NCBI GenBank assembly: GCA_965222905.1
Contig: OZ244976.1
Location: forward strand, 7,376,488 to 7,440,487
From: Vicinamibacterales bacterium
GTDB lineage: Bacteria > Acidobacteriota > Vicinamibacteria > Vicinamibacterales > UBA8438
Reading direction: 5' to 3'
Length of the DNA: 64,000 nucleotides
Shown: piece by piece, positions 67 through 20,597 of the stretch
How positions within the stretch are numbered: position 1 is the first letter of the stretch
How the letters are laid out: each line of letters begins with the position of its first letter
Notes under the pieces: model-generated
The model's database searches: none
Told to the model about the DNA's origin: nothing
The model's input: only the letters and a program-made list of their open reading frames with translations
Position numbers and translations under genes: made by a program

Positions 67-2153
67 CCCAAGTTTAACAGCCGCAGTACTAAGCAACGCG
101 GAATCAGCAACTTACAGCGACAAAAGCGCTCGAGTGGCACTACAAACCTGCGCAAACCGGGAAATGGGTCGGTCAGATGGTTGTCTTGCGGACGCCTCCC
201 GGTTGCGGGTCGACGCCGAGCGCGTCGTAGATGGCCCGCTGTTCGGGTTCGGCCTGCGTGGCGGTGCGCACGTGCAGGGTGCGCCCGTCGGGGCGCCGGA
301 AGGTGGCGGTGACGCGCTGCTGGCCTTCGAGGATGCGGCGCAGGGTGGTCCAACTGGCGTGTTCGCCGTGGGCTCGCAGCCGGGTGCGGATGACCTGCAC
401 GAGCTGGTAGGCGATGACGGTGATGAACAGGTGGCCATCGGCCCGCTGCGGCTTGTGGTGGTAGATGGGGCGCAGGCCGAGTTCGGACTTCAGTGCGCGG
501 AAGACGGCTTCGACGTCGGTGAGGGTGGTGTAGGTGCGCCACAAGGCGTCTTCGTCCCAGTCGGTCTCGCTGCTGCGCAGGCAGTAGACGCCCGGATGGG
601 TGGCCATCGAGCCGTCCTGGGGGCGACGGGTCCAGGTGACGGCGGCGGCCTTCTCGCCGGTCTGGTCGGGGGTGACCTCGATCTGGTAGTGCTTGGCGAC
701 GCGGGTATGCTTGGCTCTCAGTCGCCCAATGCGCTGCCAGACCTGTCCGAGGCGCTTGTGGGCGCGGGGGCGCGCCAGCCCCTCGTTGAGCGTGGTCAGC
801 GCGGCCTCGAAGCGGGCGGCGGCCCGCTCAACGATGGCCCGCTCCTTGTGGGCCCGCTCTTCGGAGTAGCAGTACAGGCGGACCTCGCCGGGGTCGGTCG
901 AGACGACCTTGTGCAGATGCACGGTGTGGTTCGACTGCGTGCGGACCGCCACGGCGGCCTCGGCGTCGAACTGCCGGTGGCGTTCACGGCTGACGACCAG
1001 ATAGCGGTAGCGGTTGTCGCGCAGCCACCCGATGGCGGCCTCGGTGGCGACGCCGCGGTCCATCACCACCAGGGCGCCGGCCGGCGCATCGAGTGCCTCC
1101 AGCATGCCGGCCAGGGTGCGGTGTTCCCGGACGTTGCCGGCGAAGACCTGCGAGCGGCGCACGAAGCCGCTGGCGTCGAGCATCAGGCCCAGGGTCAGCA
1201 GCGGACAGTCGCTGCGCTTCTCTTTCGAGTGCCCGCGCTTTGCCTGCGGCTGCGCGCCCGCCTCGCCTTCGAAATAGGTGTTGGTCAGGTCGTAGAGGGT
1301 CACCGTCGGCTGCAGGTCGAACAGTCCCATGGCCCGCTCGAACAGATGCGCCTCGATCGCCTCGCGGTGCTTCACCAGCGCATCCGAGGCGCGGTAGAGC
1401 TGCATCGGGCTGACGGTCTCGAAGTCGACGCCGAGCAACTCGCCGAGGCCGCTGCGTTCCTGCAGCCAGCGGTGCGTGGCGCGCTCCGAGGCCGGCTGGG
1501 CCAGGCGTCCGACGACGGCGCCGGTCGCCGCGGTGCGCAACGCGCCGTTGACGCCCAACTCGGTCAGCAGGGCCGGCAGGCCCAATTGCTCCAGGGCCCA
1601 CAGGCCGACCTGCTCGACGCCGACGCTGCGGGGGCGGACCAGGCGCAACGAGTCGACGTCGACCGGCTGCACGTCTGTCGGCCCGGCTGCTTGTCCCTGC
1701 ACCGGTGTGCCGCGGGCGACCAACTGTGCGGCTATGCGCTGCGCTTCGCGTTCGACGGCGGCCGGGCAATCGGCCACCAGGGGCGTCTGGCCGGCCAGGA
1801 TGTCGTCGCTGCGGGAGCAGACCAGCGGCCATTGCGCCTGGGGAATGTCGAAGTGGCGTCCGAGATTGAGCAGGGTGCGCTGGCGGACGGCGTTGCCGAT
1901 GCGCTCGGAGTGGACGAGGCGATGCGAGAAGTAGGGCTGTCCGTCGGCGGTCCGCCGGGTTTGGGTGCGGCGAATGAACACACGCCCACGATAGCGGGTG
2001 CACGTCCCCAGAAGCAACAACCACTCACACGATTATGGCACTACATTCAGTACCGCCAACACCCGATCCTTTAGAATCAACAAGTTATGGGGATGCGATC
2101 CTCGGAATATCGCCTAAATCTACAAAATTGTCTGGAATCTTGCTAAAGATGGG
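67..2153 (-). mobile_element. IS1634-family insertion sequence
   Basis: Ends CCCAAGTTTAACA and CCCATCTTTAGCA (reverse complement). Flanking direct repeat (G)CTAT(C) of 4-6 bp, depending on where the ends are placed. Confidence 0.9.
173..1981 (-). CDS. IS1634-family DDE transposase
   Basis: VFIRRT N-terminus, LYDLTNTYFEG, GHSKEKRSDC, VVMDRG and LKSELGLRPIYHH motifs. Probable GTG start at 1981. Confidence 0.92.
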   Translation of the reverse strand: MFIRRTQTRRTADGQPYFSHRLVHSERIGNAVRQRTLLNLGRHFDIPQAQWPLVCSRSDDILAGQTPLVADCPAAVEREAQRIAAQLVARGTPVQGQAAGPTDVQPVDVDSLRLVRPRSVGVEQVGLWALEQLGLPALLTELGVNGALRTAATGAVVGRLAQPASERATHRWLQERSGLGELLGVDFETVSPMQLYRASDALVKHREAIEAHLFERAMGLFDLQPTVTLYDLTNTYFEGEAGAQPQAKRGHSKEKRSDCPLLTLGLMLDASGFVRRSQVFAGNVREHRTLAGMLEALDAPAGALVVMDRGVATEAAIGWLRDNRYRYLVVSRERHRQFDAEAAVAVRTQSNHTVHLHKVVSTDPGEVRLYCYSEERAHKERAIVERAAARFEAALTTLNEGLARPRAHKRLGQVWQRIGRLRAKHTRVAKHYQIEVTPDQTGEKAAAVTWTRRPQDGSMATHPGVYCLRSSETDWDEDALWRTYTTLTDVEAVFRALKSELGLRPIYHHKPQRADGHLFITVIAYQLVQVIRTRLRAHGEHASWTTLRRILEGQQRVTATFRRPDGRTLHVRTATQAEPEQRAIYDALGVDPQPGGVRKTTI

Positions 2154-3367
2154 CTATCGCACCTCGCCGTACAAGGACCGCATCGACCGGATCGGCCAGC
2201 GCCTGGTCGAGCAGCGGTATCACCCCGAGGTCACGGAGCAGCATCTGCGGGAGTGGCTTCGGGTGACCGACTATCTCCGCGAGCAGGGGCTCAGACTCCC
2301 ACTCACCTTCACGGCCCCGGAGGTCGAGCAGTATGTGGCGGACCGAGTCGTCGAGCTCAGCGCCAGTCGAACGCGCTTCGTCCGGGCGGCCGTTCGGATC
2401 TTTCTGGACGCCGACGAGCACGGATACTTCCTCGTCGCATCGGGCGGGTACCGCAACCAGTGCCGTCGTGGTTCGGGTCGGCTCTGGGTGAGTACACCGA
2501 GTCCCTGTACTCCCATCGCGGGTTGGCTGCGCGCACGGTCGGCAAGCGCGTGTGGCAGCTCACCCGCTTCGCGGTGTATCTCGACCAGGACGGGGTGACG
2601 CGGCTCGACGCCATCGCGCCGCGTCACATTCACGAGTTCCTGATCCGCTTGCGGACACAGGCCGTCGCCACGCGCCTGACCTACGTGACGACACTGCGCA
2701 GCTTCTTCCGGTGGGCTGCGATGACAGGGTCGCTTCCCCGCGACCTCAGTGCGGCGGTGGCGCCGCCCCGTCAGTTCAAGCAGCGTGGCCTGCGGGATGC
2801 CCTCACCGAGCGCGAGGTGACCCGCCTTTTGAATGGCGTGGACCGCGCGTCGCCCATCGGCCGTCGTGACTATGCCGTCTTGCTGCTCGCGGCCCGGTAC
2901 GGCCTGCGTCCGTGCAACCTCCGGCAACTCCGCCTCGATGCCATCGACTGGCGGGAGCACGTGCTGTCGCTCACCCAGGCCAAGACCGGCCGCATCCTCA
3001 CCCTGCCGCTGCTCCCCGACGTCGCTGACGCCCTGATCGCCTACCTCCGGCACGGCCGGCCGGCGACCCAGTCGCGATATGTGTTTGTTCGGCACAAGGC
3101 TCCGTTCGAGCCATTCGTGGCCACGAACAACCTGGCCACGATCATGCGGCAGGCCCTGCAGCGCGTGGGGCTCGATCAGCGGGAAGGACGCCGCGGGCTC
3201 TACTTGCTGCGCCACACCTTGGCGTGTCGGATGCTGGCCAGCGGCAGTCCGCTCAAGCGCATCGGAGATGTCCTTGGGCATGCGTCCACCGGCGCCACCA
3301 TGGAGTACGCCTCTGTCGACCTGACGGCCCTTCGACGCGTGGCGATCACCGAAGCGGATGTGCGTCC

Positions 3368-4375
3368 ATGACGGCGGGAACGGCCGGGCCGCACTCGACG
3401 TGGTCGTCTCCGCTGGCCGCTGCGCTGCAGCGGTTTCTCGATGGCAAACGAGCCGCGGGGTATCGCTACCGCGCCGAAGCCCAGGCGCTGGGCGCACTCG
3501 ACCTTTTCCTCAGCAAGGCCCTCTCGCCGGCCGACCCCGTGATCACCAGCGACATCGTGCGTGCCTTCGTGGCCCGGCGCGGGGCCGAGTCGGAGACCAC
3601 GCGTGTGCATCGGCTGACGCTTATCCGGGAGGTGTGTCGCTTCCTCGCACTCGATGACCCGCGGACGTTTGTGCCGGCGCCACGATTCCTCGGCATCCAC
3701 CGCCGCACCAACGTGCCGCGTGTCCTCTCGCTTGATGAAGGCCGCCGGTTTCTCGACGCCTGCGACACCTTGGACCGGCGCCGCAGCTCGCCCTGCCGCG
3801 ACCTCGTCCTCCGGACGTTGCTGGTCCTGCTCTATCTCACGGGGTTGCGTGCCGGAGAAGCCCTTCGCCTCACCCTGGCGGACGTCGATCTGGAGACGGC
3901 AGTGCTCCGCATTTGCGACACCAAGTTCGGCAAGTCACGGCTCGTGCCCCTCGCCGCCGACGTCGCAGCTCGACTCGCGCAGTGTCGGGACACTCTCACG
4001 GACGAGCTCGGCGAGCGGACACCGGGCGAGCCGTTCTTCCCAGCGCCCTCCGGCCAGCCGTACTCGATCTCGGCCCTGCGTGACGTCTTCCACGCGGTCC
4101 TGGCCGCAGCGGGGATTCCCCGCTGGCAGGGAGGGAGATCCTTGCGGCTGCACGACCTGAGACACTCGTTTGCAGTTCTCCGCCTGACACTGTGGTATCG
4201 ACAGCAGGCCCCGCTCGGGAACCTCCTGCCGGCGCTGGCCACCTACCTCGGGCACGTGGACATCGCCAGCTCACAACGCTACCTCCAGATGACCGAAGAC
4301 GTCGTCGCCGACTTCACGCACCGTTACGCGGCGCGGTTCGGGCATCTTCTCTCCGAGGACGGAGGGCCGCGGTGA
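3368..4375 (+). CDS. RIT element 1 second tyrosine recombinase (RitB-like)
   Basis: ATGA overlap with the upstream gene. LYLTGLRAGEAL, KFGKSR and LHDLRHSFA...YLGH motifs. Confidence 0.9.
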   Translation: MTAGTAGPHSTWSSPLAAALQRFLDGKRAAGYRYRAEAQALGALDLFLSKALSPADPVITSDIVRAFVARRGAESETTRVHRLTLIREVCRFLALDDPRTFVPAPRFLGIHRRTNVPRVLSLDEGRRFLDACDTLDRRRSSPCRDLVLRTLLVLLYLTGLRAGEALRLTLADVDLETAVLRICDTKFGKSRLVPLAADVAARLAQCRDTLTDELGERTPGEPFFPAPSGQPYSISALRDVFHAVLAAAGIPRWQGGRSLRLHDLRHSFAVLRLTLWYRQQAPLGNLLPALATYLGHVDIASSQRYLQMTEDVVADFTHRYAARFGHLLSEDGGPR

Positions 4376-5376
4376 CTACCCACGACCTTGCGCCCTTCGT
4401 CACGACGTTCTTCACGCGGCATCTCCCAGCCGAGCGAAATGCCAGCCCGCATACCATCGCCGCGTATCGCGATACCCTCAAGCTCCTCCTGCGCTTTCTG
4501 GCCGCGTCGATGCATCGTACGGCGGCCGCGTTACACATCGAAGACATCACGCCCGATCGCATCCTCGACTTCCTGGCGGACCTCGAAACCACGCGGCGCA
4601 ACACCATTCGCACGCGCAACGCCCGGCTCGCCGCCATCCACAGCTTCTTCCGCTACGTGCTCGATACCGAGCCCGCCCTCGCGCTGCTCTGTCAGCGCGT
4701 TCTGGCCGTCCCCGTGAAGAAGGCCCCGCGTCCCGTGCTCGGCCACCTCAGCGACAGCGAGCTGACACATGTGCTCGCGCAGATCGATCGCTCGACGCAG
4801 GCCGGTGAACGCGACTACCTCCTGGTGGCCCTGCTCTACGATACGGGGGCGCGTATCCAGGAGCTCTTGGATCTGGCGCCGTGCCATGTCCGATTCGCAC
4901 CGCCCCCGTTCGTCCGGCTCTACGGCAAGGGCCGGCGCGAACGGCTCACGCCCCTGCTGCCGCAAACCGCTCGGCTGGTGCGACGCTTCCTCGCCGCAGC
5001 AGGACGCCGCGAAGATGACACAGAGCCGCTGATCCAGAACCGGAACGGGCAACGCCTCACGCGCCACGGCGCACGCTATCTCTTGGACAAGTACGTCAAG
5101 CGCGCCCAGGCCTCGCTCCCGAGTCTCGCCCGGACCCGCATCAGTCCTCACACGTTGCGCCACACCAAGGCGATGCATCTCCTTCAGTCGGACATCCCGC
5201 TCGTCACCATCAAGGACTTCCTGGGCCACGCCGACGTGAAGTCCACGGAGGTCTACGTCCAGAGCGACCTCGCGATGAAACGCGACGCCCTGGACCGTGT
5301 CGGCACCCCAGTCCGGCTCGGGCCAAAGCCTCGCCGGCTCTCCAAAGACCTCCTCGAATGGCTCGAGTCCCTGTAG
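4372..5376 (+). CDS. RIT element 1 third tyrosine recombinase (RitC-like)
   Basis: GTGA overlap. [30 protein letters not shown] and [12 protein letters not shown]...LGH...T..Y motifs. Confidence 0.92.
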
Positions 5377-5456
5377 GAATTATGTGAAGTGCGACGTGTC
5401 CAGGACCGGCGAAAAAGCTCTCCTGATCTCTCCCGATCTCCTTTGTCCCATTGGAG

Positions 5457-5482
5457 CGCAACATAACGGGGAACTCAACATA
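5457..5482 (-). repeat. RIT element 1 right terminal repeat
   Basis: Reverse complement TATGTTGAGTTCCCCGTTATGTTGCG matches the RIT2 left end at 32538-32563 at 22/26 positions and lies exactly where istA is truncated. Confidence 0.75.
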
Positions 5483-5842
5483 GGACTCGCCGGGCAGGGT
5501 GACGACGCGGCGGTAGACGGTACGGTTGGTCTCGGGCCGCAGGCGCCGCGCGAGGCGGCGGACCTGGATGACCGAGCCCGGATAGCCGCGCTGGCGGACC
5601 ATCTCGTAGATCCGCGTGGCGCGCAGATTCGGATACTGCGCCAGGGTGTCCCGGATGAACGGCAGATACGGGTCGAGGATGCTGGGCCGACACAGGCTGG
5701 GGCGGACCCCTGCCGTCTCGCGCTCCACCGCGGCGCGCACCGTCTCATGGTGGAGGCCGAGTTGGGCCGCGATGGTCCCGACCTTCCAGTGCTCGCCGTA
5801 GAACAGGCGCCGGATCTCGGCGCGCTGCGCGGGCGTGATCAT
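5483..5842 (-). pseudogene. istA: IS21-family transposase IstA, 5' fragment truncated by the RIT end
   Basis: [14 protein letters not shown]...[35 protein letters not shown]...TLPGE, then an abrupt switch to the RIT terminal repeat. Confidence 0.85.
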
Positions 5843-8769: not shown

Positions 8770-9131
8770 CGGGAACGATGTCTACGGTAGCGACGAGTCT
8801 TGGGCCCGGGGCAGTCTCTGGAGACACATGGCCCAATCGTCCACCAGACGCCGCCGCCGCTCGAACAGGTCCGACCGCGCGTAGGCAGCCTCCACCTTGT
8901 TCTGGATCACGTGGGCGAGCGCGGCTCGATGACTTCGCGCGGATGGTCCGTTTCCTCGGCGGCCCAATCCGGAACGACGACCGGAAGCCGTGCGGCACGG
9001 CGGAGAGCTCGTGGTGCTGGAGCATCTGCGGGAACGTCGACGTGGCTATCGACCTCCCGCTCCGCATCGGGAACACGAGCCGGTTGCCGTCGCCGAGCGT
9101 CCGCGCCGCATCGAGGATCTCCAGCGCCCGG
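8770..9131 (-). pseudogene. P4-like phage integrase C-terminal remnant (frameshifted)
   Basis: RALEILDAAR..., VPHGFRSSFR, ALAHVIQNKVEAAYARSDLFERRRRLVDDW spread across shifted frames. Confidence 0.8.
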
Positions 9132-10587
9132 GGGATTGTCCCGTTCGTTGTTGAACTTCGGGTGACGGACTCCCGGTCTCCTCTACGTAGTCATCTATAT
9201 TACGCCACGTCAGCAACCATGCCGTCGGGCGGAGCCAGCGCGTCCAGGGCAACGACCAGGTGCTGCAGATCACGGTAGCCCCGGACCCGCCGGAAGCGCT
9301 TCTCCGCCTCCACCAGCGCGCTCGCCACCCAGCGTTGAATCATCTGACCACCGCGCCAGCGCTTGACGTTGCGCGAGTAGTGCTCGACGCTGCCGTTGAG
9401 GTTCTCGATGATGTTCGTCGTCCGCAGGGTACGCTGCAGCGCACCCGTCAGACCGAGGCGCTGCACGGTCAGCGTCTCGTCGAGTCCTTCCCGGATGGAG
9501 GCCGCTGCCCCGGGGTGCTCGCGCTCGAGCGACTTGGCCAGCCGCTCGAGCACCCGCGCCGCACGGTCCGCCGAATCGAGGTCCCACGCATCCCGCAACG
9601 CCTTGCCGACAGAGGCGTGCAGCCGCTCGGGCAGATGGCCGATGACGTTCCTCCACTTATGGACTTGGCAGCGTTGCACCACGCCGCGAGAACCGAAGAC
9701 GTCGGTGATGGCCCGGCGCAGCCCCGCAGCGCCATCGATGACGAACAGCAACGTCCGGTCCGTCGGCAGTCCGCGCGCCACCAGGTCGCTCAACAGGCCG
9801 GTGGTGACAGCAGCGGTCTCGGTGGCGCCTTCGCGCAGCCCCAGCACGTGTTTCCGGCCCTGGGTGTCGATCCCCAGCGCGATCACCATGCAGTGGTCCC
9901 GGAAGACCTTGCCGTCGATGCAGACCACCCGCAGGTCCAGTTCCCCCAACGGCCGGCCGAGAAACGCCTGGAGGCGCTTGGTCGACAGCGCCACGAACCG
10001 CCGCGACACGGCGCTGCTCGATGTCGCCCGCTCGGTCACGTCGGCCGGCACCGGGTCCAGCGTGCCCGCATACCGGCGTGTCGACACCCCGGCGGCGACC
10101 GCGGCCAGCGTATGCTCGTCCAGCGGGTCGGTGGCCGCCGCCCATTGGAAGCTCGCCAGCGGGACTTCGCCCTCGGCGCTCCGCACCCGCTGCCGTGGCA
10201 GCTCGACCTGCCGTCCGCCGAGCGTCACCTGGCTGTCGACACTCCCGCCGCGCCACGCGGGCCGCTCAACCTGATGGCGCCCCTTCGGGCCACACAGCAT
10301 TTCCCGGTCCGCCTCCATCATCGCCTCCAGGACCTGCAGACCGGTCGCAATGCACAAGCCATGGAATGCTTCCCGGACACCGTTGACCACGCCGAGGACC
10401 GGCAGCGGCACCTGGATCGTGACGGGGCGCGAGCTGGGGGGTTGGCCGGACGTCTTCCGCCTGTCATGCTTCGCCATGGGTGGCAGTCTCCTTTTTTGAT
10501 TGCATCCCCTGTCCTACCACAGGACAGGGGCAGGAGCTGCCACCCGCTTCATCTCAGTTCAAGTTCAACAGCGTTCGGGACATCCCC
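9132..10587 (-). mobile_element. IS256-family insertion sequence
   Basis: Imperfect TIRs GGGATTGTCCCGTTCGTTGTTGAACTT and AAGTTCAACAGCGTTCGGGACATCCCC. GCGCCCGG is duplicated at 9124-9131 and 10588-10595. Confidence 0.9.
9200..10477 (-). CDS. IS256-family transposase
   Basis: AGVSTRRY, VCIDG, LFVIDGAAGL, QRCQVHKWRN and LRTTNIIENLN motifs. Confidence 0.92.
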   Translation of the reverse strand: MAKHDRRKTSGQPPSSRPVTIQVPLPVLGVVNGVREAFHGLCIATGLQVLEAMMEADREMLCGPKGRHQVERPAWRGGSVDSQVTLGGRQVELPRQRVRSAEGEVPLASFQWAAATDPLDEHTLAAVAAGVSTRRYAGTLDPVPADVTERATSSSAVSRRFVALSTKRLQAFLGRPLGELDLRVVCIDGKVFRDHCMVIALGIDTQGRKHVLGLREGATETAAVTTGLLSDLVARGLPTDRTLLFVIDGAAGLRRAITDVFGSRGVVQRCQVHKWRNVIGHLPERLHASVGKALRDAWDLDSADRAARVLERLAKSLEREHPGAAASIREGLDETLTVQRLGLTGALQRTLRTTNIIENLNGSVEHYSRNVKRWRGGQMIQRWVASALVEAEKRFRRVRGYRDLQHLVVALDALAPPDGMVADVA

Positions 10588-10619
10588 GCGCCCGGCCGCA
10601 GAGGTGGTGTGTCCCAGAA

Positions 10620-11744
10620 GGGTGCGGCTCTTCTTCGTCGGCGGCCGAATCAGTCTCTGCGGCAGCGAGGCAGGAGGCAATTGGATCCGTCACGGCGTGG
10701 TGAGGGAGCAGCGGAGGGGACCGGTGGCCGATGGTACTTGTGCGGTCAGCGACGGCTGGGGGTGTTCCGCTGGTACTCGCGCGCTTGGTGGAGGGTCTCA
10801 GTACGCATCAATGCGCCGGCGGCCCGTGGCGGCTTGAGGACCGTCGCAACTGCAGCCAAGTGTCACCGTGCGCCGGTCGACTACCATCCGGTCGCGGGCC
10901 AAATGCCGACAGGCCTTCAATGAGCTGGGCGACGAGCACCGCACGCCGCATCGCCGCTGCCACGTGGATAATGTCGAGTACCACTGTGGCTTCCAGGGCG
11001 TACGCGGTGGTGCCCGCGAAGCGGTCGCGATGGTCACGCGGCGGCGCATATCGACCAAGGAGCGCTCCGGCAGCAGGTTCAGCGCGGCATCGAGCGGATG
11101 CAGGCCGTCGTGACCGCGCCGCGCGCAGCCCAGACCCACAACCGGCATCGTGCCGGAGGTCGTTTCGGCGTGGCTATCCTGCTCGCGCCGCGCCGAGCAC
11201 TCGACACCACTGGCGTCCTCGGCCGGACCGGCAGCCTGTCCCGGGCTGCGTTGGTCGTGATGTCCTTGCAGGAGCTTGCGTACCAACTTCTGGCCCCGCC
11301 GGTGCAGTTCCCGTTCGAGTTCGCTCTCGCTCATCTGCCGGGCTTCGTTGGAGGAGAGGAAGGCTTTGGCATCCGCGAAGACAGCATCGGCCGCTGCGCA
11401 CGGGGCCGGGCTCGGGAGATCGATGCGAGGGACGCCGGTTCGCGCCTCTGGCACGTCGAATCTACGTCCCTGGAATCCTGTCGTCACAGCCATCACAGGT
11501 CTGTCCCCCCCCTGCCCATGGAACCGTACCAGAACGCCGCGCGAATGTCCAGAAGGGAGCGCGCCCGAGGGGGACAGACCGACGGTATTCGGTACCGTTT
11601 CGAGGCTCGGCTGGCCGCCGGAAAGACGCGGGTACGTGCTGGCTTGGTTGCTGTCCCCCCGAACTGAGCACTGGAGAGACGCATCCGCGGGCAAAAAGGC
11701 CCATGAATAGGGCGAAAACTTCTCTACGAAGAAGAGCCGCACCC
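10620..11744 (-). mobile_element. Non-autonomous, internally deleted ISKra4-like element, copy 1 (1125 bp)
   Basis: Perfect 19-bp TIR GGGTGCGGCTCTTCTTCGT. 9-bp TSD GTCCCAGAA at 10611-10619 and 11745-11753. Transposase relics include SESELERELHRRGQKLVRKLLQGH, LHPLDAALNL and VVLDIIHV. Confidence 0.85.
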
Positions 11745-11865
11745 GTCCCAGAAATGGCTTCACATCACCAGCCTGTAGCCGACGAGACTGCGAAACCCGC
11801 GGTTTCCGGGACGATTCTGGGCCGCGGCGTTGGAAGCACCGTGAAAGTCGAACTGTAAACTCTTT

Positions 11866-12876
11866 CTAGCCGCTCGACCGGGCCGACGCGCGAGAGAGCG
11901 CGTAGCCACACTTCTGGCAACTTACCAGCCCCTGCACGAGGCTCGGTTCGATCGTGCGCCGCCGGGCGTGCACCTTGTTCTCGTGCAGCAGTTCCTGTGC
12001 GCGCGCGAAAGTCGACTCGTCCACGATCGCCGGCACCGGGATCTCGATCCATTCCTCGCGCGGCCGTTCGTGGTTCGCACTGTCGCGACTGGCGGCGCCG
12101 CCGCGCAGCCGTAGTGGGCGCGTCAAGCGCTGCCGTTGGGCTCGTTGCGTCTTGCCGAAACACGCCGTGCCGCGATAGGCCGGGTTGCGCAGCATCGCCC
12201 ATACGGTGGAGCGTTCCCAACGGGTGCCGACCTTCCGCGTGGGCACGCCTTGCTCGTTGAGCCAGCGGGTGATCGCCGCGATACTCCAGCCCGTGACGGT
12301 GTAGTGCTCGTAGACGTCGCGGACAACGCGCGCTTCGGCGTCGATGACGACGTACGCCGCGGGGTTGTCCTCACGCTTGCGAATGTAGCGATAACCATAG
12401 GGAGCGCCGCCCAGGACACTGATCTCACCGGCTCGCGCGCGGTGCCGCTTGCCACGACGCGACCGTTCGAGGATCTGAGCGCGTTCGTACTCGGCGATCA
12501 TGCCCTGAAACTGCACCAGCAGCTGATCCTCGGCCGTGGCGCTCGACGGAGCATTGAGGAAGCGGGCTTCGACCCCCTGGCGGGCGAACTCTTCGATCAA
12601 CAGCACCTGGTAGGCGTACTTCCGACTCAGCCGATCCGGACTGTGCACGAGCACCACCTGGATGTCGCCGGCGGCTGCGAGGTCGCGCACCTGTTCCAAT
12701 CCCGGCCGTTCGAGAGTCGCCCCGCTATAGCCTTCGTCTTCGAAGATCCATTGCTGGGGCGCCTCCAGATCGAGCGTCGCGGCCCAATCGACCAGCGCCG
12801 CCGTCTGGCTCGCGATCGTGTGCGCTTCGCGCTGCTGGTTCGAGGACACGCGCGTGTAAATCGCCGCCATCTGCAT
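11866..12876 (-). pseudogene. Large serine recombinase LSR2, truncated just after the first CxxC of the Zn ribbon
   Basis: AAIYTRVSS catalytic motif, EDEGYSGATLERPGL, DRLSR, recombinase domain GAPYGY and LRNPAYRG. Ends GLVSCQKCG...SSG*. Confidence 0.9.
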
Positions 12877-13027
12877 GTGGACGCTCCATTCCATAAGCTG
12901 CAACCGGACGCATACGGGCCGGCACCAACAACGTGTACGCCTGGGCGATCTTGCTGTCGCGAAGTCGATCGAACGTGCAATCGAGCTGCACCTGCCGGGG
13001 AGCACTTCGTGGTTGTCGTTCACCCAC
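12725..13027 (-). CDS. Small hypothetical accessory protein overlapping the LSR2 start
   Basis: Translationally coupled between the HTH gene and LSR2. RQVQLDCTFDRLRDSKIAQAYTLLVP motif. Confidence 0.5.
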   Translation of the reverse strand: MGERQPRSAPRQVQLDCTFDRLRDSKIAQAYTLLVPARMRPVAAYGMERPHADGGDLHARVLEPAARSAHDREPDGGAGRLGRDARSGGAPAMDLRRRRL

Positions 13028-13352
13028 GTCGCTGACGGAAGGTGTCCAGGAACGCCGTCACCGCCTGGGTGACGACTTGTCCGAGGGAGAGTCCGCTCTC
13101 GCGGGCATAGGCGCGGATTGCGCGTACGGTGCTGACCGGCAGCTTGAAGGTGATCGCGACGGTCGGCTCGACCGCCGGCAGCGGAGCGCTCAGCCCGGCT
13201 GCTTCCTGGAGATAGCGGTAGGCTTGCCGGCGGGACAATGCAAACTCGCGACCGAGATGGCGGGCCGCCTCGGCGCGTTCCATCTGCTGCCCGAGCAGCC
13301 GGTACGCGGCGTTGAGCAAGCGCGCCTTGTCGGCCTTGGTGGCCCGCGCCAT
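13020..13352 (-). CDS. Small DNA-binding protein (HTH plus ribbon-helix-helix-like)
   Basis: AARHLGREFALSRRQAYRYLQEA helix-turn-helix, followed by ITFKLPVSTVRAIRAYARESGLSLGQVV. Confidence 0.7.
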   Translation of the reverse strand: MARATKADKARLLNAAYRLLGQQMERAEAARHLGREFALSRRQAYRYLQEAAGLSAPLPAVEPTVAITFKLPVSTVRAIRAYARESGLSLGQVVTQAVTAFLDTFRQRRG

Positions 13353-13461
13353 GAGTCATACACATATTACCTCTTGAGACGCAAGTCAAGTACCGGTCGG
13401 TCTCGCCAGCCGGTGATCACCCGATCGAACTGAAAGTTGCCTTTTGCGTTCGGGGAGTAGC

Positions 13462-13812
13462 GACGCCCCCTTGGGGCGTTCCCATCGTGCGCGGCACCAG
13501 GGTTCCGTCTTCCTGCTGCATGGGAGCGGTCAGCCACCGCTGCACATAGAGCAGAATCCACCGGCACCGGGTGTACTTCCTGACCGCACGCATGACGAGC
13601 GCGTGGTCCAGGTTGTCAAAGAAGCCGCGGATATCCAGATCGATCACCCAGTCATAACGCCAGCATCGCTGCCGGGCTGTCGTGAGTGCGTCGATCGCGG
13701 ACTTCCGCGGGCGATACCCATACGAATCGGGATGGAACTGCGGCTCCACGTCCGGTTCCAGGTACATCTTGACCACCGTCTGGGCAATTCTGTCAGCGAC
13801 AGTGGGGACGCC
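13462..13812 (-). pseudogene. Class D group II intron RT, middle fragment (RT2-RT4)
   Basis: GVPTVADRIAQTVVK...DSYGYRPRKSA...RCWRYDWVIDLDIRGFFDN...RWLTAP...GTPQGGV, RmInt1-like. Confidence 0.9.
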
Positions 13813-13864
13813 GGCTTCATAATGCACCTCCTGCAGCACGGCTTCGGGATTCTCGTGCGACCGT

Positions 13865-16552
13865 TCAAATTCTCGAGGAGTTTCGGACCCAGGCGCGCAA
13901 TGTCTCCTTTTTGTCGTCGTCGAAGGCGATCCAGTACGGCGAGCCGTGGTTAGGACAGTGCCCTAAACTAGTTTGCCACATGCCAGTTTCCTGGTCATAC
14001 TGGAGGTATGAAGCGAGATATCGAGCTGGAAGCGACCCTGGTTGCGAAGTATGCCGTGGTCGCGCCGGTGTTGGACGAGCGCAGTCGCCGCCGGTGGGCG
14101 GCGGCCGAGTCGCTCGCTGTCGGCTACGGCGGCGACGCGGTGGTTTCGTCGGCCACCGGTCTGGCTCGGGAGACGATTCGCAAGGGACGCCGGGAGATTG
14201 CCCCCGACGAGGCGCCCACCGACCGCATCCGACGCCCTGGAGGCGGACGGCTCCGCATCCAGCAGGATCAACCCGGCATCCAGGCCGCGCTCGAAGCGCT
14301 GGTGGACCCGCTCACGCGCGGCGACCCGACCTCGCCGCTACGCTGGACGTGCAAGAGTCGCGCGAAGCTGGCGGGGGCGCTCGTCGACCGCATCGGGAAC
14401 GTCCGGACGGCGACCGGGCTCCGGGTCCTGGCCGAACTCGACGCCGGGCAGTATCCTACGGGCGTCACGGTGACCAAGGAACAGATGGACGCACTCGCGC
14501 TGGTTCCCGATGCGTTTCACGGGGAATGGAATTACAAACTGTTACCCCGATGAAGTTGACAACTTTATATCGATCACTGTCCTAGGTCGTCGAGCCGTGA
14601 CTACGCCGCGGTCGATCCAGTAGTAGACCACATTGCGGCTGACGCCGAGTTCGTCGGCGACCTGACGGACGCTGCGCTCGCCGGGGCGCTTGAAGTCGGG
14701 AGCCGGAATCCGGTGCTTGTGGCGGATCCAACGGACCATCGAGACGTTGAATGCCCCGCCTTTGGCGCTCCGGCGACCCTCCCGGTTCAGCGCTGCTGCG
14801 ACCTGCTCGTCGGAGCGCTCGCGAGCCAGCTCGCGCACCCGGTCGACGACCTCGTCGGGATACCGGAGGCGATCGGCAATGTTGGCGGGCAGCGTAACCT
14901 CGAGGTCTTCGCAGGCCCCACCCTGCCACCGGACATGCAAGATGGCGGTCTTGCGTTCGCCGAACCGCTCGACGGTGATGTCCTTGATCACGAGCCGGAG
15001 GATGCGCTTCTTGTCCTTCGCCTTGGTCGTGGGCGCGTTCCACAGGCGGGGGAAGTCGTGGGCGAGCGCCGCCACCCGGGCGCGCTGCTCCGGCGTGACC
15101 ACGAGCGCTTCCTTGCTCTGAAAGTCAGCAAACTGCGTCCTGACCTCTTCGAGCCGCACCAGGGCGTCGTTCCAGCGCTGCTCGAGCGTCGCGGCCACGA
15201 GGCGATTCGACGGATCGACCTCCTCGTAGCGGCGCTGGGCCAACTGCGCTTCGTACTCGGCTCGTTCCAGGCGCATGCGCCATTGGCCGGACATCGCCTT
15301 GTCCCGGTGTTTCGAGCTGCCGTAGCGCTTCCTCGGCGACCTCGAGCTCGGCAGGTTCGAGCACCGCCAGCATCCGCTCCGAGACCGCGGTGTCCAGCAG
15401 GTCGCAACGCAGGCTCATGCAGCTGGTGGTCGCCACTCCTTCGCGCCGCCGCGCGTTGCATTCGTAGGTCGGGTAGATGCCGCCGTTGCCCTTGTAGCGG
15501 ACGGTCAGTCGGCGACCGCAGCGCCCGCACAGCAGCAGGCCTTGGAGCAGTGCGAGTCCTTCCCGCGCGGCGCCGCTCAAGAGCATGTGCTCGGCATTGG
15601 TACGGTTGTTCTCGAGCAGCTGCTGGTTCCGCTCGTACTCCGGCCAGGAGACGTAGCCGTCGTGGTGATTCTGGATCCGCACGAGCCAGGCGTCCAGCGG
15701 GACGCAGCGCGTGCGCATGCGGACGTCGCCTTCGGGGGAAACCTCCTTCGTGCTCTGGTGACGCCCGAAGACATACGCCCCGGCATACGTGGGGTTCTTG
15801 AGAATGTCGAGCACGCGGTTGTGGTTCAGCCGACCCCAGATGAGTCTGCCGTCCCACGCCCCGCCGTAGGCGCGCTTCGGGAACCGCAGTTGCTGTCGGC
15901 CGAAGTGGTGCACGACCGCGTAGGCGCTGCCCGTCTGGCGGAAGACCTCGAAGACCAGCCGGACAGCGCCCTGGACCTCCTGGTCCGGATCGAGCACGAT
16001 GCGCCCCTCGTCGGCGTAGCACAGGCCGATCGGCAACGGGAAGCGGAGCTCACCCTTCTGGGCCTTGTGGAGCTTGCCGCCCTGGAGGCGCGCGCGAATG
16101 ACGTGCAGCTCGGCCTGGGCGATGGTGGCCTTGAGGCCCAACAGCAGCGCGTCGTTGAAGTCCGCCGGGTCGTAGCAGCCGTCCTCGTCGATGACCAGCG
16201 TCCGGGTCAGCGCGCAGATCTCGATCAACCGATGCCATTCCAGGTTCGAGCGGGCCAACCGTGAGGCTTCCAGGGCGAAGATCGCGCCGACGCGGCCCAG
16301 CGACACATCGGCGACCAGCGTCTTGAAGTCCTCGCGGTTGGTCGTCTGCGCCCCCGACTGCCCGAGGTCCTGGTCGAGGATCCGGATTCGCTCCGGCGCC
16401 CACATCATCTCGACGGCCCGGTTCCGCAGGTCGTACTGCCGCTCGGTACTCTCCTGGTGATGGCGCACCTGCCCCATCGTCGACTGCCGGATATAGATGT
16501 AGGCCGGCTTCTGCAGGTGGTGGCTCTGTACTTTCGACATCGTCAGCACCAC
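13865..16552 (-). pseudogene. Large serine recombinase LSR1 with C-terminal HTH extension; frameshift near 15310 and mini-IS insertion at 13953-14582
   Basis: AYIYIRQST catalytic motif, DQDLGQSG, LEASRLAR, LLCGRCGRRL Zn ribbon. Removing the mini-IS joins ...TARRP to NHGSPYWI...NSSRI*. Confidence 0.88.
13953..14582 (+). mobile_element. Internally deleted ISAzo13-family element (630 bp)
   Basis: TIR GGACAGTG/CACTGTCC with a TA duplication. ORF 14008-14553 fuses the ISAzo13 N-terminus (LDERSRRRWAAAES, RGDPTSPLRWTCKS) in frame to the C-terminus (YPTGVTV, FHGEWNY). Confidence 0.85.
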
Positions 16553-16703
16553 CCTCGATCAGTTCCTGACGGGTGTGGGACGGAAGCGCGTGCCCGCTCG
16601 TCGCAGCGGCCGCGCGCTCGGAAGCGATCCAGCACTGCAGCATGTTCGCGGTCAACAGGCCGGCGGTCTGGACATCGACGGGCACGGCGGCCGCCATCTG
16701 CAT

Positions 16704-17048
16704 TCAGTCGATCGGCTCCCGACGTCGCAGCAGCTCGAGGTTGATCGCGGCGATCTCGTCGAGGAGCTGTCGCGTCCGGCGGTAGTTGGCGACGAACTGC
16801 TCGACCTGGCTGCGATGCTCCTGCGGCACGTAGACCATGACCGGTCGCGCCTTCGGCATGCTGACCGACAGGTAGACCTTCGGACCGTGGCCGATACCGC
16901 GCGCGCACTTGCACCCTGGTCGTCCGCAGCGCTTGAAGCGTTCGATGAGCGAGCCGCGCAGGATGGCCTTCAGGGACGGGAGCTGCCGCAGCAGCATTGT
17001 CCGGCGCCTCCGTAACGTACTCGCCAAGCGTGTTTTCAGACCAGTCAT
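16704..17048 (-). CDS. DUF6788-like small protein (CGRPGCKC motif)
   Basis: LRGSLIERFKRCGRPGCKCARGIGHGP.VYLSVS pattern, located upstream of LSR1. Confidence 0.75.
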   Translation of the reverse strand: MTGLKTRLASTLRRRRTMLLRQLPSLKAILRGSLIERFKRCGRPGCKCARGIGHGPKVYLSVSMPKARPVMVYVPQEHRSQVEQFVANYRRTRQLLDEIAAINLELLRRREPID

Positions 17049-17078
17049 ACAACTGGTCTGATACTACACCTCTCGACC

Positions 17079-17385
17079 TCATTTGGGAAGCCCTCGGTCG
17101 TCGGCCTGCTCCAAGGCCGCCAACAGCTCGGTCAGCGCGATGAGCTTCACGAAATCGAGGACATGAGCGCCGCTCGCAAGATCCGCCGCCGCGGCCGGAA
17201 CCTCTCGATCCGTCCACTCGCGGGGCACGCAGAACGTACCTCCGGAGGTGCCCTGCAGAATGAGCGTGTCGATGCCGGAGACGCGGCGCGTCTTCAGGAT
17301 CGGAAACCGCCGACCCCGGAGTGGATGAAACGGGTGGGTGATCTCAGTCCACCCCGACGGCTCGTTGGGGCGATGTGCAGTTCGC
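17079..17385 (-). CDS. DUF5372-like small protein; start uncertain at the element boundary
   Basis: ITHPFHPLRGRRF...VPREWTD motif. No clear start codon inside the element. Confidence 0.6.
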
Positions 17386-17388
17386 GAT

Positions 17389-18191
17389 GACCGTGGGAAT
17401 GCCCAAGCGTCGCTCACTTCCGTCCTTCTTCGGTATCCCAACCGACCGGACCGGAGGCGGGAAGTACGTGCCCGACGACATCCGATTCCAAATCTTATAG
17501 AGATTGTTCTTCAGGTCCTGCTCGAACATCTCGACAGACTCAGCATCGACGCCAGCTGCTCCGTGGTTCGCCTTGACCCGAGTGTAGGCCTCCCAAACCA
17601 CCCACTTGGAAATATTGAACGGCTTCGCGTGGCTCGACGGCTCCTCCCGCGCGCGCGGTTGACCGTCGGGACACGCTGGATGACGCGACCCCTTTGCTCC
17701 ATCGAGTTTCCCCGACTTCATCGCTCGTACGGGTCGCTCCGCCCCTGTGCCTCGCATCGGGCTTCTCATCCTTGGGGGTCGGCCCCTTGGATTTCTCCCT
17801 TCACATCGAGGCGACAGGTTCCCACGTTCCACACAAGGGCCTGGTGCAGGGTCACGCCACCTTTATGCCGGGTGCCGCCCAGCCAAGCTGCAGGCTCCCG
17901 CTGGACTTGTCCCGGGTTAACGACTCGCCCCGGTTTCGACACCGTCCCTACGCTTTCGACACGTTGCCGGTGGTTCATACACTTCGTCTCCCTGCACCCT
18001 ACCTGACGCGGTCAAGCCGCGCCGTTTCCGTGACGCTTACCACCTCGGCTCTTGACCGAGGCAGCGCACGACGGTTTGAAGCCTCCCCCTGCCGGGCGGC
18101 TCCGAGGGGCCTACCCTCATCCCTCATGCAGCATGGCTGCAGCTAGTCTAGGTGGCCATCTCGGCCTCCTTTCCGCGCCTTCGTGGCGCAC
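17389..18191 (-). mobile_element. Class D group II intron, 5' part (ribozyme 5' domains plus RT N-terminus); 3' end not found
   Basis: Starts with GTGCG at 18191. RT reads KPFNISKWVVWEAYTRVKANHGAAGVD...NLYKIWNRMSSGTYFPPPV...RRLGIPTV. EBS1/EBS2 match the 5' exon. Confidence 0.88.
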
Positions 18192-20597
18192 AATCATCGG
18201 CGTAGCGCACGATGATTGCGTCGCCTGTGACCTCGTGGCTGCGCCATTTCTTCTGGAACCATAGGTCGAGGACGTAGTGCAGGTAGATGTTCGCCAGGAC
18301 TGGTGAAACCACCGAGCCTTGGGGAGTTCCCCGCAGATTGTCCCGCCACTCGCCAGCTTCCATGACGCCGGCGTTCAACCACTTGATGATGAGCCTGATG
18401 ACCCGCTTGTCCCCGATACGGTGCTCGAGGAACCGGACCATCCAGTCCCGCGAGACGTTATCGAAGAATGCGCGGATGTCGCAGTCCGCCACCCAGTTGA
18501 TCTTCCGCCGTGTCAGTCCGACCGCGAGCGCGTCGAGCGCGTCATGCGCCCCGCGCCCGCGCCGGAATCCGTAGCTGAACCCCAGGAACTCCGCCTCGTA
18601 TATCGGCGTCAGGATGGTCTCCGTCACCGCCTTCTGGACTATCTTGTCTTCGATGGCCGCGACGCCGAGCGGTCGTGTGCCGCCATCCGGCTTCGGAATG
18701 TTCACCCGCCGTGATGGCGTCGCCCGGTACGCTCCCGAGTGCACGCGGTCGTGCAGGTCGGCCAGCCGGCCTTCCAGCCCTTCCTCGTACATCCGCCACG
18801 TCATGCCGTCCGCGCCGGCCGCTGCATCCCTCTTCAGCTCGAAGAACGCTTGGCGCAACGCATCGACCGTGACATGGTGGAGAAGCGCCGTCAGACGCTC
18901 CTGTGGCTCCCGGCGTACGAATTGCCGTATCCGGTCGGCCGCCTGTGACGCGCTTTCCCGGCGCTGCGTCCGGCGCGCGCTTTGGCTTTCCGGATTCCCC
19001 TTGGGCTCGGTCCTGGGCTCCATTGGCTCCGCAGGGACCGGAGTCCCCTTGTTCGCCAACTTCACAGCTACTACGACCGAGTCTGATTTGGGTGCGGCTC
19101 TTCTTCGTAGAGGAGTTTTCGCCCTATTCATGGGCCTTTTTGCCCGCGGATGCGTCTCTCCAGTGCTCATTTCGGGGGGACAGCAACCAAGCCAGCGCGT
19201 ACCCGCGTCTTTCCGGCGGCCAGCCGAGCCTCGAAACGGTACCGAATACCGTCGGTCTGTCCCCCTCGGGCGCGCTCCCTTCTGGACATTCGCGCGGCGT
19301 TCTGGTACGGTTCCATGGGCAGGGGGACAGACCTGTGATGGCTGTGACGACAGGATTCCAGGGACGTAGATTCGACGTGCCAGAGGCGCGAACCGGCGTC
19401 CCTCGCATCGATCTCCCGAGCCCGGCCCCGTGCGCAGCGGCCGATGCTGTCTTCGCGGATGCCAAAGCCTTCCTCTCCTCCAACGAAGCCCGGCAGATGA
19501 GCGAGAGCGAACTCGAACGGGAACTGCACCGGCGGGGCCAGAAGTTGGTACGCAAGCTCCTGCAAGGACATCACGACCAACGCAGCCCGGGACAGGCTGC
19601 CGGTCCGGCCGAGGACGCCAGTGGTGTCGAGTGCTCGGCGCGGCGCGAGCAGGATAGCCACGCCGAAACGACCTCCGGCACGATGCCGGTTGTGGGTCTG
19701 GGCTGCGCGCGGCGCGGTCACGACGGCCTGCATCCGCTCGATGCCGCGCTGAACCTGCTGCCGGAGCGCTCCTTGGTCGATATGCGCCGCCGCGTGACCA
19801 TCGCGACCGCTTCGCGGGCACCACCGCGTACGCCCTGGAAGCCACAGTGGTACTCGACATTATCCACGTGGCAGCGGCGATGCGGCGTGCGGTGCTCGTC
19901 GCCCAGCTCATTGAAGGCCTGTCGGCATTTGGCCCGCGACCGGATGGTAGTCGACCGGCGCACGGTGACACTTGGCTGCAGTTGCGACGGTCCTCAAGCC
20001 GCCACGGGCCGCCGGCGCATTGATGCGTACTGAGACCCTCCACCAAGCGCGCGAGTACCAGCGGAACACCCCCAGCCGTCGCTGACCGCACAAGTACCAT
20101 CGGCCACCGGTCCCCTCCGCTGCTCCCTCACCACGCCGTGACGGATCCAATTGCCTCCTGCCTCGCTGCCGCAGAGACTGATTCGGCCGCCGACGAAGAA
20201 GAGCCGCACCCGTCTGATTTCTCCATGCCGTTCATCTTTGGTTACGGATTCCTCCTTTCCTCAGCGACCCCGCCCACGACAGCGGGATGGCATGGAGACC
20301 TCCCAGGTCCCGGTTCAGCGCGTACGTGCGTGCCTGGGTTCTTCGACACCGCGGGATTCCGGCCCCCCTCGCCATATCGGTGGGACGGATGCTGCCTTCG
20401 GTTTCCGGCGAAGACCTCGGCATCCCGGACGGAAATTTCTTTCGGTGCTCAATAGCCCTGCCCGCACGCGCCCCTGTCAACGCTTGACCCCCGCCCTCGC
20501 GGACGGTGGCCCATGACTCGGGGTGGAAGTGGTGGCTCACCTTCTCCTTCCTGCCGGACTCTCACCGGCTACGCTGACACCAGTTAGCCTGGCGCAC
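18192..20597 (-). mobile_element. Class E-like group II intron, 5' part; RT truncated right after YADD
   Basis: GTGCG at 20597. EBS1 CGCCGG (20405-20410) pairs with IBS1 CCGGCG. RT reads RLTALLHHV...YIPK-like NIPKPDG.TRPLG..EDKIVQ, GTPQGSVVSP, RYADD. Class assignment is by motif resemblance. Confidence 0.85.
19090..20211 (+). mobile_element. Non-autonomous ISKra4-like element, copy 2 (1122 bp), inside the class E intron RNA
   Basis: Same 19-bp TIR as copy 1. 9-bp TSD GTCTGATTT at 19081-19089 and 20212-20220. Near-identical to 10620-11744 in inverted orientation. Confidence 0.88.

Follow-up and report, generated by a model that had tools for sequence, protein, structure and literature searches.

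A truncated large serine recombinase element at motif 4 of a group II intron reverse transcriptase gene in a Vicinamibacterales genome, and its complete relatives

We analyzed a stretch of 64,000 nucleotides from a Vicinamibacterales bacterium (GenBank assembly GCA_965222905.1, contig OZ244976.1, positions 7,376,488 to 7,440,487 of the forward strand), which we call the window, and focused on a large serine recombinase (LSR) gene, LSR2, that adjoins a broken group II intron reverse transcriptase (RT) gene, RT-A. An earlier note, made from the letters of this region, had described an RT fragment ending at GTPQGGV (13462), followed by GCT ACT CCC (A-T-P) and then by a helix-turn-helix/ribbon-helix-helix (HTH/RHH) gene, a small coupled open reading frame (ORF) and a second LSR. 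The motif and the codons lie exactly where the note had put them, and all three genes are present 3′ of the RT fragment. The features of RT-A and LSR2 in the 64-kb window, all on the minus strand, are as follows.

13462 to 13839, minus strand: middle fragment of RT-A, a group II intron RT; left target arm (B), ending with the codons GTPQGGV.
13460 to 13461, minus strand: GC, the attL copy of the crossover dinucleotide, forming bases 1 and 2 of the codon 3′ of QGGV.
13434 to 13459, minus strand: terminal inverted repeat (26 nt) at the left end of the LSR2 element, TACTCCCCGAACGCAAAAGGCAACTT; P′ arm of attL.
13020 to 13352, minus strand: gene for a DNA-binding protein of 110 aa, with a three-helix HTH at the N-terminus and an RHH at the C-terminus.
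12725 to 13027, minus strand: small overlapping ORF, whose GTG start at 13027 overlaps the TGA stop of the 110-aa ORF (GTGGGTGA).
11871 to 12876, minus strand: LSR2, a truncated LSR with Pfam Resolvase and Recombinase domains; start MQMAAIYTRVSS.

Read from 13839 to 13462, the RT-A fragment matched positions 13-127 of the 205 of Pfam RVT_1 (E 3.8e-15); the final V of its GTPQGGV is the GTC at 13464-13462, from which the sequence continues as GC T ACTCCCCGAACGCAAAAGGCAACTT. Judged by its domains, LSR2 is a genuine LSR: its Resolvase domain (PF00239, residues 4-151, E 1.9e-32) has an intact catalytic-serine motif, AAIYTRVSS, and its Recombinase domain (PF07508) was found with E 7e-23. The window copy is without a zinc ribbon and is truncated after residue 335, at the first cysteines of that domain (CQKCGYALSRA...); the ORF itself ends at 11866, and homology to every relative ends at 11870/11871. 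The note had taken the distal end and the RT C-terminus to be lost, and tblastn found neither the LSR2 C-terminus nor the C-terminal part of RT-A anywhere in the window. There is also no second LSR2-type terminal repeat in the window, where 13434-13459 is the sole such end, and a simple scan of the minus strand found no promoter 5′ of the 110-aa ORF. Positions 11871-13459 are the left three-fifths of a 2.24-kb mobile element, and the LSR2 copy they hold is an inactive, truncated remnant. LSR2 shares 25% identity with LSR1 (15125-16552), the other recombinase in RT-A, in keeping with the earlier assignment of the two to separate families.

A scan of one genome per species yielded at least 418 stretches encoding relatives, of which the best 80 were examined; metagenomes hold thousands. 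Both ends were found in 66 of the 83 loci (L numbers below) that we examined for ends, giving an intact size of 2.21-2.30 kb, and flanks were analyzed in 64 complete elements from species-representative genomes of Acidobacteriota, Gemmatimonadota and Proteobacteria. The best 120 LSR2 homologues, all at least 80% identical, came mainly from soil metagenomes labelled Gemmatimonadales, Acidobacteria or Solirubrobacteraceae; most of them are 540-590 aa long, with a zinc ribbon. Full-length relatives, 538-588 aa long, have all three LSR domains, and those 82-93% identical to the window LSR2 carry the zinc ribbon PF13408 (Zn_ribbon_recom). The intact element consists of 26-bp terminal inverted repeats, the 110-aa HTH+RHH protein, the small overlapping ORF and an LSR of ~555 aa, which is its sole enzyme. 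Across the 64 elements, positions 0-25 of the left end are the complement of those of the right, apart from an asymmetry of ~5% per position, and complementarity stops sharply at the unrelated flanks. The LSR frame extends through the right repeat in most copies (...YLLRSGS = TACCTTTTGCGTTCGGGGAGT).

The note had proposed that full-length homologues be retrieved and read downstream, and when this was done they were found to be followed directly by (V/I/A/L)SPLL(A/S)N...YADD and a maturase domain. L001, L002 and a Mesorhizobium plasmid share the gene order RVT_1, 110-aa ORF, LSR and RVT_1 with the group II maturase domain (GIIM), and the downstream ORFs of L001 and L002 read ...IEVTFCVRG|VISPL(L/F)SN...YADD. 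The closest relative is L012, an intact copy in a Vicinamibacterales genome that is 99.1% identical to window 11871-13778, with the RT-A middle fragment 99% identical to L012 3099-3415. Its right junction, ...CCTTTTGCGTTCGGGGAGT|A GC GAGCCCGCTCCTGGCCAAC (GGGGAGT|A-GC-GAGCCC), encodes V-A-S-P-L-L-A-N-I-F...YADD and a maturase domain. Hosts include Vicinamibacterales, Acidobacteriaceae/Terriglobia, Gemmatimonadales and Alpha-, Gamma- and Deltaproteobacteria, among them the isolates Sinorhizobium psoraleae, Bradyrhizobium erythrophlei, Mesorhizobium tianshanense and Nitrococcus mobilis (Nb-231). Further copies are carried by rhizobial plasmids in cultured strains (pMspAR02c of Mesorhizobium sp. 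AR02; Bradyrhizobium elkanii USDA 76). RefSeq splits the rhizobial plasmid pieces into a 'reverse transcriptase domain-containing protein', a 'ribbon-helix-helix protein, CopG family', a 'recombinase family protein' and a 'group II intron maturase-specific domain-containing protein'. Sequence nearly identical to the element in L012 (3200-5900) was also observed in several sponge and coral-reef metagenomes (share of words 0.16-0.48), as well as in public runs labelled with two organisms.

The element is almost confined to DNA for RT motif 4 (RT4; G-T/V-P-Q-G-x-x-X-S-P-L-L) of group II intron RTs. Deletion of the element plus 2 nt restored an in-frame G(T/V)PQG..xSPLL(A/S)N in 51 of the 64 complete elements, bearing out the earlier proposal that this LSR family targets RT4. 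Many of the restored ORFs are full-length RTs of 420-690 aa, and five of six that were tested contain RVT_1 and GIIM. Around 60 of the 64 have the motif on at least one flank, and most of the 13 unrestored loci have it on one flank. Alignment of the junctions, which the note had suggested as a way to define the core, placed a 2-nt crossover within codon X of QG(G)(V/P)-X-SP, at its first two bases; by eye, registers shifted by +1 or -1 fitted worse than the central one in L001, L012 and L005. The target consensus in the RT sense spans ~40 bp, GG.AC.CCgCAaGG.Gg.gtg-aT-.tcgCCgcTgcTc..cAAc. A target-mimicking attachment (att) half-site had been predicted, and the element ends (xACTCCCC... and ...GGGGAGTx′) indeed resemble the target arms (GGNGGNGTN and NTCNCCNC), matching all 8 inner positions of the left arm and 7 of the 9 of the right arm. 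Because of this resemblance the junction reads (A/I/L)-T-P and not (I/V/A/L)-S-P. Joined to each other, the ends would form a palindromic attP, ...GGGG(A/C)GTx′-NN-xAC(T/G)CCCC....

Beyond what the note had described, the element inserts in both orientations. Among the 51 restored loci the LSR is co-oriented with the RT in 21 and opposite in 30, with no significant bias (binomial, p ~0.26), and both orientations occur within the same RT family (L001, L005 and L009 versus L011 and L026). We attribute this to the target, which is partly dyad-symmetric with GNGGNG on both sides, together with the commonest cores, AT and GC, which are palindromic. Group II intron 5′ domains were detected by Rfam beside both RTs of the window (group-II-D1D4-2 at 18001-18118 and D1D4-6 at 20337-20562), and since the insertion is precise and falls in the PQGG-x-x-SP coding DNA of group II intron RTs, the element is a parasite of another mobile element.

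Empty sites were found in public data. Contigs of three of four public runs join L012 position 3415 to 5655, omitting 2239 nt with a 2-nt ambiguity, which equals the element plus one GC; L012 itself has GC at both junctions. In one sponge metagenome the depth of the empty form was 57.6, against ~20 for the element. For L005, contigs of all four of the same runs join 3417 to 5660 and read CCG-AT-TTCGCC. The window has an unoccupied target of its own in the neighbouring intron RT gene, RT-B.

18301 to 18330, minus strand: unoccupied target in RT-B, GTPQGSV-GTT-SPVLANIYL; predicted crossover GT at 18309-18308.

The RT-B homologue in L004, 90% identical, has an LSR2-type element at the same codon, and the alignment of L004 with the window ends at 18309. 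Several copies can occur in a genome: one Pseudomonadales chromosome has three, and Nitrococcus mobilis has two.

These observations bear on the idea that the LSR genes are intron cargo or form a composite unit with the RT, or that a random deletion or the assembly produced the junction at 13462. The window taken by itself lends this some color, as a single junction is visible in a region that is a pile of nested, broken mobile elements. Against it, the same 26-nt ends lie in RTs of different intron lineages and phyla and in both orientations, precise removal restores the ORF, and empty sites exist, so that we give this explanation practically no weight. The note had named as refuting outcomes a lack of association with RTs and a random deletion endpoint, and both are contradicted by the data: dozens of independent loci have the same junction sequence, far more than chance would give. 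We are therefore highly confident that the copy in the window, dead and truncated, belongs to a widespread LSR element of ~2.2 kb that inserts at the RT4 motif of group II intron RTs.

The dinucleotides at the two junctions of an element are often unequal, being identical in 29 of 64, different by one base in another 29 and different at both in 6 (35/64 unequal). Mismatch amounts to ~30% per nt at the core versus ~5% per nt in the adjoining repeat. Closely related elements at independent sites have the same right-hand dinucleotide, while the left-hand one fits the RT codon: AG is common to L005, L011, L026, L062, L063, L065 and L071, CT to L021 and L023 (same genome, opposite orientations) and TT to L034 and L035, and AC occurs in several Acidobacteriaceae copies. 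In L005, with AT on the left and AG on the right, the empty site has AT, and therefore AG arrived with the element. The element-derived dinucleotide was seen on the right side only. Non-palindromic cores that are equal at both junctions fit the expected orientation, and all AG/AG cases lie opposite to RTs with a Leu CTN codon.

A transposase supplied in trans could in principle recognize the inverted repeats and make a 2-bp target duplication, leaving the LSR as a resolvase or passenger, and 26-bp inverted repeats with a 2-nt repeat do superficially resemble a DDE transposon. Yet no transposase is encoded, while the LSR, the 110-aa protein and the small ORF are kept in every copy. Duplication by repair would give identical dinucleotides, whereas 35 of 64 differ and the right-hand one of L005 is not in the empty site, and the palindromic joined ends have the look of a serine-integrase attP. 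We consider a trans-acting transposase highly improbable.

Another view of the unequal dinucleotides is that they are secondary, arising by point mutation in dead RT flanks or by recombination between copies at different loci. Exchange between copies is visible in L015, L041, L049 and L058, in each of which both flanks carry one and the same half of the motif, as inversion between two oppositely oriented copies would produce, and chimeric flanks would still look intact. Against a secondary origin stand the excess of mismatch at the core over the neighbouring repeat, the attR-side dinucleotides (AG; CT; TT) shared by close relatives at independent sites and in opposite orientations, and the empty site of L005, which carries AT, not AG. 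A secondary origin thus seems to us unlikely, with a chance that is nevertheless appreciable. The recombinase itself may tolerate a mismatched core, with the heteroduplex resolved later.

Contigs with joined element ends were also sought in metagenomes. The scan returned six, of which only L084 has a clean right-to-left junction, and this is not a hairpin artefact because one base tells the left repeat from the right. Of the others, L088 holds a tandem pair and L087 a head-to-head pair, and L085, L086 and L089 have a left end beside a solo repeat. The tandem, head-to-head and solo-repeat arrangements suggest that hybrid junctions stay usable as targets. We noted the junctions at 591-628 in L087, 750-787 in L088 and 2647-2684 in L085, and the solo terminal repeat adjoins a gene that, read by eye, is putatively DNA-methyltransferase-like.

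Several points weigh against the reading of the element as a site-specific, serine-recombining parasite of RT4. The evidence for its recombination activity is indirect, consisting of the empty sites, the right-to-left end junctions and the several copies per genome; the metagenome scan gave no unambiguous excised circle, as the L084 junction could derive from a tandem pair. The right end of the window copy is lost, and its own second junction is presumed from L012. Canonical serine integrases need identical dinucleotides, and the unequal ones here imply either a mechanistic difference or exchange between copies; the like-with-like flanks of the four loci above show that rearrangement between copies does occur. 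Finally, a few insertions lie outside RT genes (L003 and L025, both in a palindrome like the repetitive extragenic palindromic (REP) sequences, and L033, L069 and L083); L025 is without a right end and hence outside the set of 64.

Such non-RT insertions would be expected if LSR2 were a loosely specific, multi-targeting LSR of the TndX/TnpX type that strikes RTs only through the abundance of motif-like sequence. Elements that adjoin each other (L087, L088) or a solo repeat (L085) point the same way, and the target-gene-cluster criterion of Durrant et al. 2022 (PMC10083194) would score LSR2 as multi-targeting. On the other side are the ~60 of 64 elements with the RT4 motif on at least one flank, the crossover at the same codon position, the consensus of ~40 bp and the Pfam domains of the best 120 homologues, among which the DUF4368 of that clade does not occur. 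We judge loose specificity to be distinctly unlikely and retain the RT4 motif as the specific target. As a separate observation, the REP-like palindrome, (GAGGTT)GCCCCRRCTATGCGGA-GC-TCCGCATAGYYGGGGC, is a secondary target in several loci of Vicinamibacterales-type genomes (L003 5400-5420 and 7666-7690; L025 3400-3420 and ~5494; loose ends at L012 3416 in runs X15 and X16).

We propose a mechanism whose steps are modelled on known serine integrases. The element would excise as a circle, in which the two repeats join as a palindromic attP (...GGGGAGTx′-NN-xACTCCCC...). LSR dimers would bind this attP and the partly dyad-symmetric attB (GGNGGNGTN-NN-NTCNCCNC), whose inner 8-9 bp are like the attP arms, cut both sites at the central dinucleotide, rotate the half-sites and religate them. 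The palindromic nature of the commonest cores would permit both orientations, and the exchange seems to tolerate a mismatched core, given the 35 of 64 unequal pairs and the right-hand dinucleotide of L005 that is absent from its empty site. The window copy inserted into intron RT-A before its lineage split from that of L012. Its zinc ribbon, coiled coil and right repeat were lost afterwards, together with the C-terminus of the RT, at the point where the element now meets unrelated DNA.

The 110-aa protein has 508 homologues of ~110 aa, constant in length and without a Pfam family. In an AlphaFold2 model (pLDDT 87), residues 6-52 fold as a three-helix HTH and the C-terminal half as strand-helix-helix; the latter resembles the RHH of CopG, Arc and TacA (Foldseek probabilities 0.8-0.95, with non-significant E-values), and no significant whole-protein Foldseek match was obtained. 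RefSeq names the Mesorhizobium homologue 'ribbon-helix-helix protein, CopG family'. In the small ORF the conserved stretch, with the motif QVQLDxxFDRLxxxKxAQAYxLLVP, runs from 13027 to ~12880, and the remainder overlaps the LSR2 start in another frame. Among elements 65-70% identical its frame is open and conserved while the other two frames have stops, and it encodes the motif (V/I)x(L/V)(D/S)YxFDRLxxxKLAQAYxxLVP. Pfam gave nothing significant for either product. Either the 110-aa protein or the product of the small ORF could be a regulator or directionality factor.

The DNA beyond the broken end of LSR2 is occupied by other elements.

11745 to 11870, strand not assigned: unrelated DNA abutting the LSR2 break, continuing into 10591-10619 and below 9129 once two nested insertion sequences (ISs) are removed.
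10620 to 11744, with a second, inverted copy (99.4% identical) at 19090 to 20214: 1125-bp element with perfect 19-bp inverted repeats, GGGTGCGGCTCTTCTTCGT.
9129 to 10590: IS256-family element with a 425-aa transposase ORF (10477-9200) and 30-nt imperfect inverted repeats at 9129-9158 and 10561-10590.

The 126 bp at 11745-11870 have no match elsewhere in the window or in any fetched locus, and no Rfam match at E <= 0.1. The 1125-bp element, which is without an intact transposase gene and probably non-autonomous, is flanked by 9-bp target duplications, TTCTGGGAC for the copy at 10620-11744 and GTCTGATTT for that at 19090-20214; the former implies that 11745-11870 and 10611-10619 were once contiguous. 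The end of the IS256-family element was considered as the cause of the LSR2 break and ruled out, its inverted repeats lying at 9129-9158 and 10561-10590. Both ISs are simple insertions into foreign DNA and neither caused the break, which therefore marks either where a deletion or rearrangement ended or one edge of a larger insertion.

The same RT-A is also split by the LSR1 element (13840-17390, minus strand), which contains DUF5372 (17441-17079), DUF6788 (17048-16704), LSR1 (16552-15125) and a frameshifted C-terminal part (15294-14542), and whose two junctions both read G(I/V)PTV. L012 has the LSR2 insertion (99% identity) but an uninterrupted GIPTVADRIAQTV where the window has LSR1, which makes the LSR2 insertion the earlier of two independent events. 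The empty site for the LSR1 element in L012 (702-1253) reads RLGIPTVADRIAQTV. A different IS, with a DUF6788 gene and a DUF772/DDE_Tnp_1 transposase, lies in the L012 RT (1236-3099) at AQTV|VKMYLEP, and DUF6788 genes are paired with DUF772 genes in L001 (2104-4320); from these pairings and that with LSR1, DUF6788 travels with both a serine recombinase and a DDE transposase. A fragment of an ISAzo13-family (DDE_Tnp_ISAZ013) transposase gene lies at 14008-14553 on the plus strand, where it separates the middle RT fragment from the end of the LSR1 element.

Group II introns are nested at 17832-20562 (minus strand), where RT-B stops abruptly after YADD (~18190) and the 5′ part of intron A, which Rfam assigns to group-II-D1D4-2, begins. 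The second 1125-bp copy (19090-20214) interrupts intron B, with the 5′ RNA domains of that intron on one side and the RT-B ORF on the other. The arrangement of truncated RT-B, intron A 5′ part and the LSR1 element recurs in L004 (1-3418) at 90% identity, which indicates that the pile was copied or inherited as a unit. The window also contains a direct repeat of ~860 bp at 78% identity (37338-38192 and 41784-42630).

LSR transposons are a known kind of element; homing at the level of a motif to group II intron RTs appears, provisionally, to be new. Full-text searches, including Durrant et al. 2022, found no literature on LSR elements targeting group II intron RT genes, and as they covered few subscription journals, 'undescribed' is itself provisional. 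We tentatively entertain, as possible though short of an even chance, the larger proposal that these are undescribed and very abundant hyperparasitic LSR insertion sequences that home to RT4 across phyla, with a recombinase that tolerates or resets a non-identical core, and that act as antagonists or hitch-hikers of introns. A serine integrase whose site is set by a conserved protein motif, and not by one genomic locus, would find thousands of places to land across unrelated hosts, each insertion disabling a further selfish element. The ecology of mobile DNA thereby gains a layer, in which introns lie within introns and one gene has been hit by two or more unrelated LSR families, and the element may account for some of the numerous broken group II intron ORFs of soil bacteria. 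It also offers a natural series of attB variants, variable central dinucleotides included, for studying how LSRs read DNA and, if the core requirement is truly relaxed, a source of integrases with that property. Because copies sit on plasmids of cultured rhizobia, the system is open to laboratory testing.

Among known systems, LSR2 is distantly similar to the integrases of TP901-1, SPbeta (SprA/YokA, 9dxh) and A118 (4kis), and its catalytic domain matched that of TnpX (2mhc). In its mode of action it would come closest to the LSR transposons Tn4451 and Tn5397. In these, a single LSR (TnpX or TndX) excises the element as a circle and reinserts it, with a 2-nt core and many sites per genome; these elements are 6-21 kb long, carry cargo and use short, loose sites with a fixed GA core. 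The LSR2 element is like them in its single LSR, proposed excision and reinsertion as a circle, 2-nt crossover and many insertion sites, and unlike them in being 2.2 kb long without cargo, in its 26-bp inverted repeats and in a coding-motif target of ~40 bp with a variable core. The multi-targeting clade of TndX/TnpX-like LSRs is marked by DUF4368, a short relaxed target motif and a fixed core (Durrant et al. 2022, PMC10083194). With no DUF4368 among its best 120 homologues, a long specific target and a variable core, the LSR2 family does not match that description.

With phiC31, Bxb1, A118, TP901-1 and SPbeta SprA the family shares the Resolvase, Recombinase, zinc ribbon and coiled coil parts, a palindromic attP and a partly symmetric attB. 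Phage serine integrases use one attB per genome, require identical central dinucleotides, so that phiC31 and Bxb1 do not complete recombination when these differ, and depend on a separate directionality factor. LSR2 elements, in contrast, have many attB copies in another mobile element, insert in both orientations and often have unequal attL and attR dinucleotides. The nearest conceptual precedent is phiRv1, found in Mycobacterium tuberculosis. There too the attB of a serine integrase lies in a repeated and probably mobile sequence, REP13E12, so that one genome offers several sites. Yet phiRv1 is prophage-like and confined to one genus, whereas the LSR2 target is a conserved protein-coding motif of diverged introns across phyla.

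IS607 resembles the LSR2 element as a small insertion sequence driven by a serine recombinase. Its serine recombinase, TnpA, is small and has its DNA-binding (HTH) domain at the N-terminus, and the element has no terminal inverted repeats and minimal target specificity (PMC6188088, PMC4058570). Compared with IS607, LSR2 differs in its N-terminal catalytic domain, its length of ~555 aa with C-terminal LSR domains, its 26-bp inverted repeats and its high specificity. Finally, inteins and homing endonuclease genes, R2 in ribosomal DNA and the REP-targeting elements of the IS110/IS1397 type likewise exploit a sequence kept by selection as a safe and widespread landing site, and are likewise parasitic; the LSR2 element would do so by serine recombination and not by endonuclease-triggered repair, retrotransposition or DEDD/DDE transposition.

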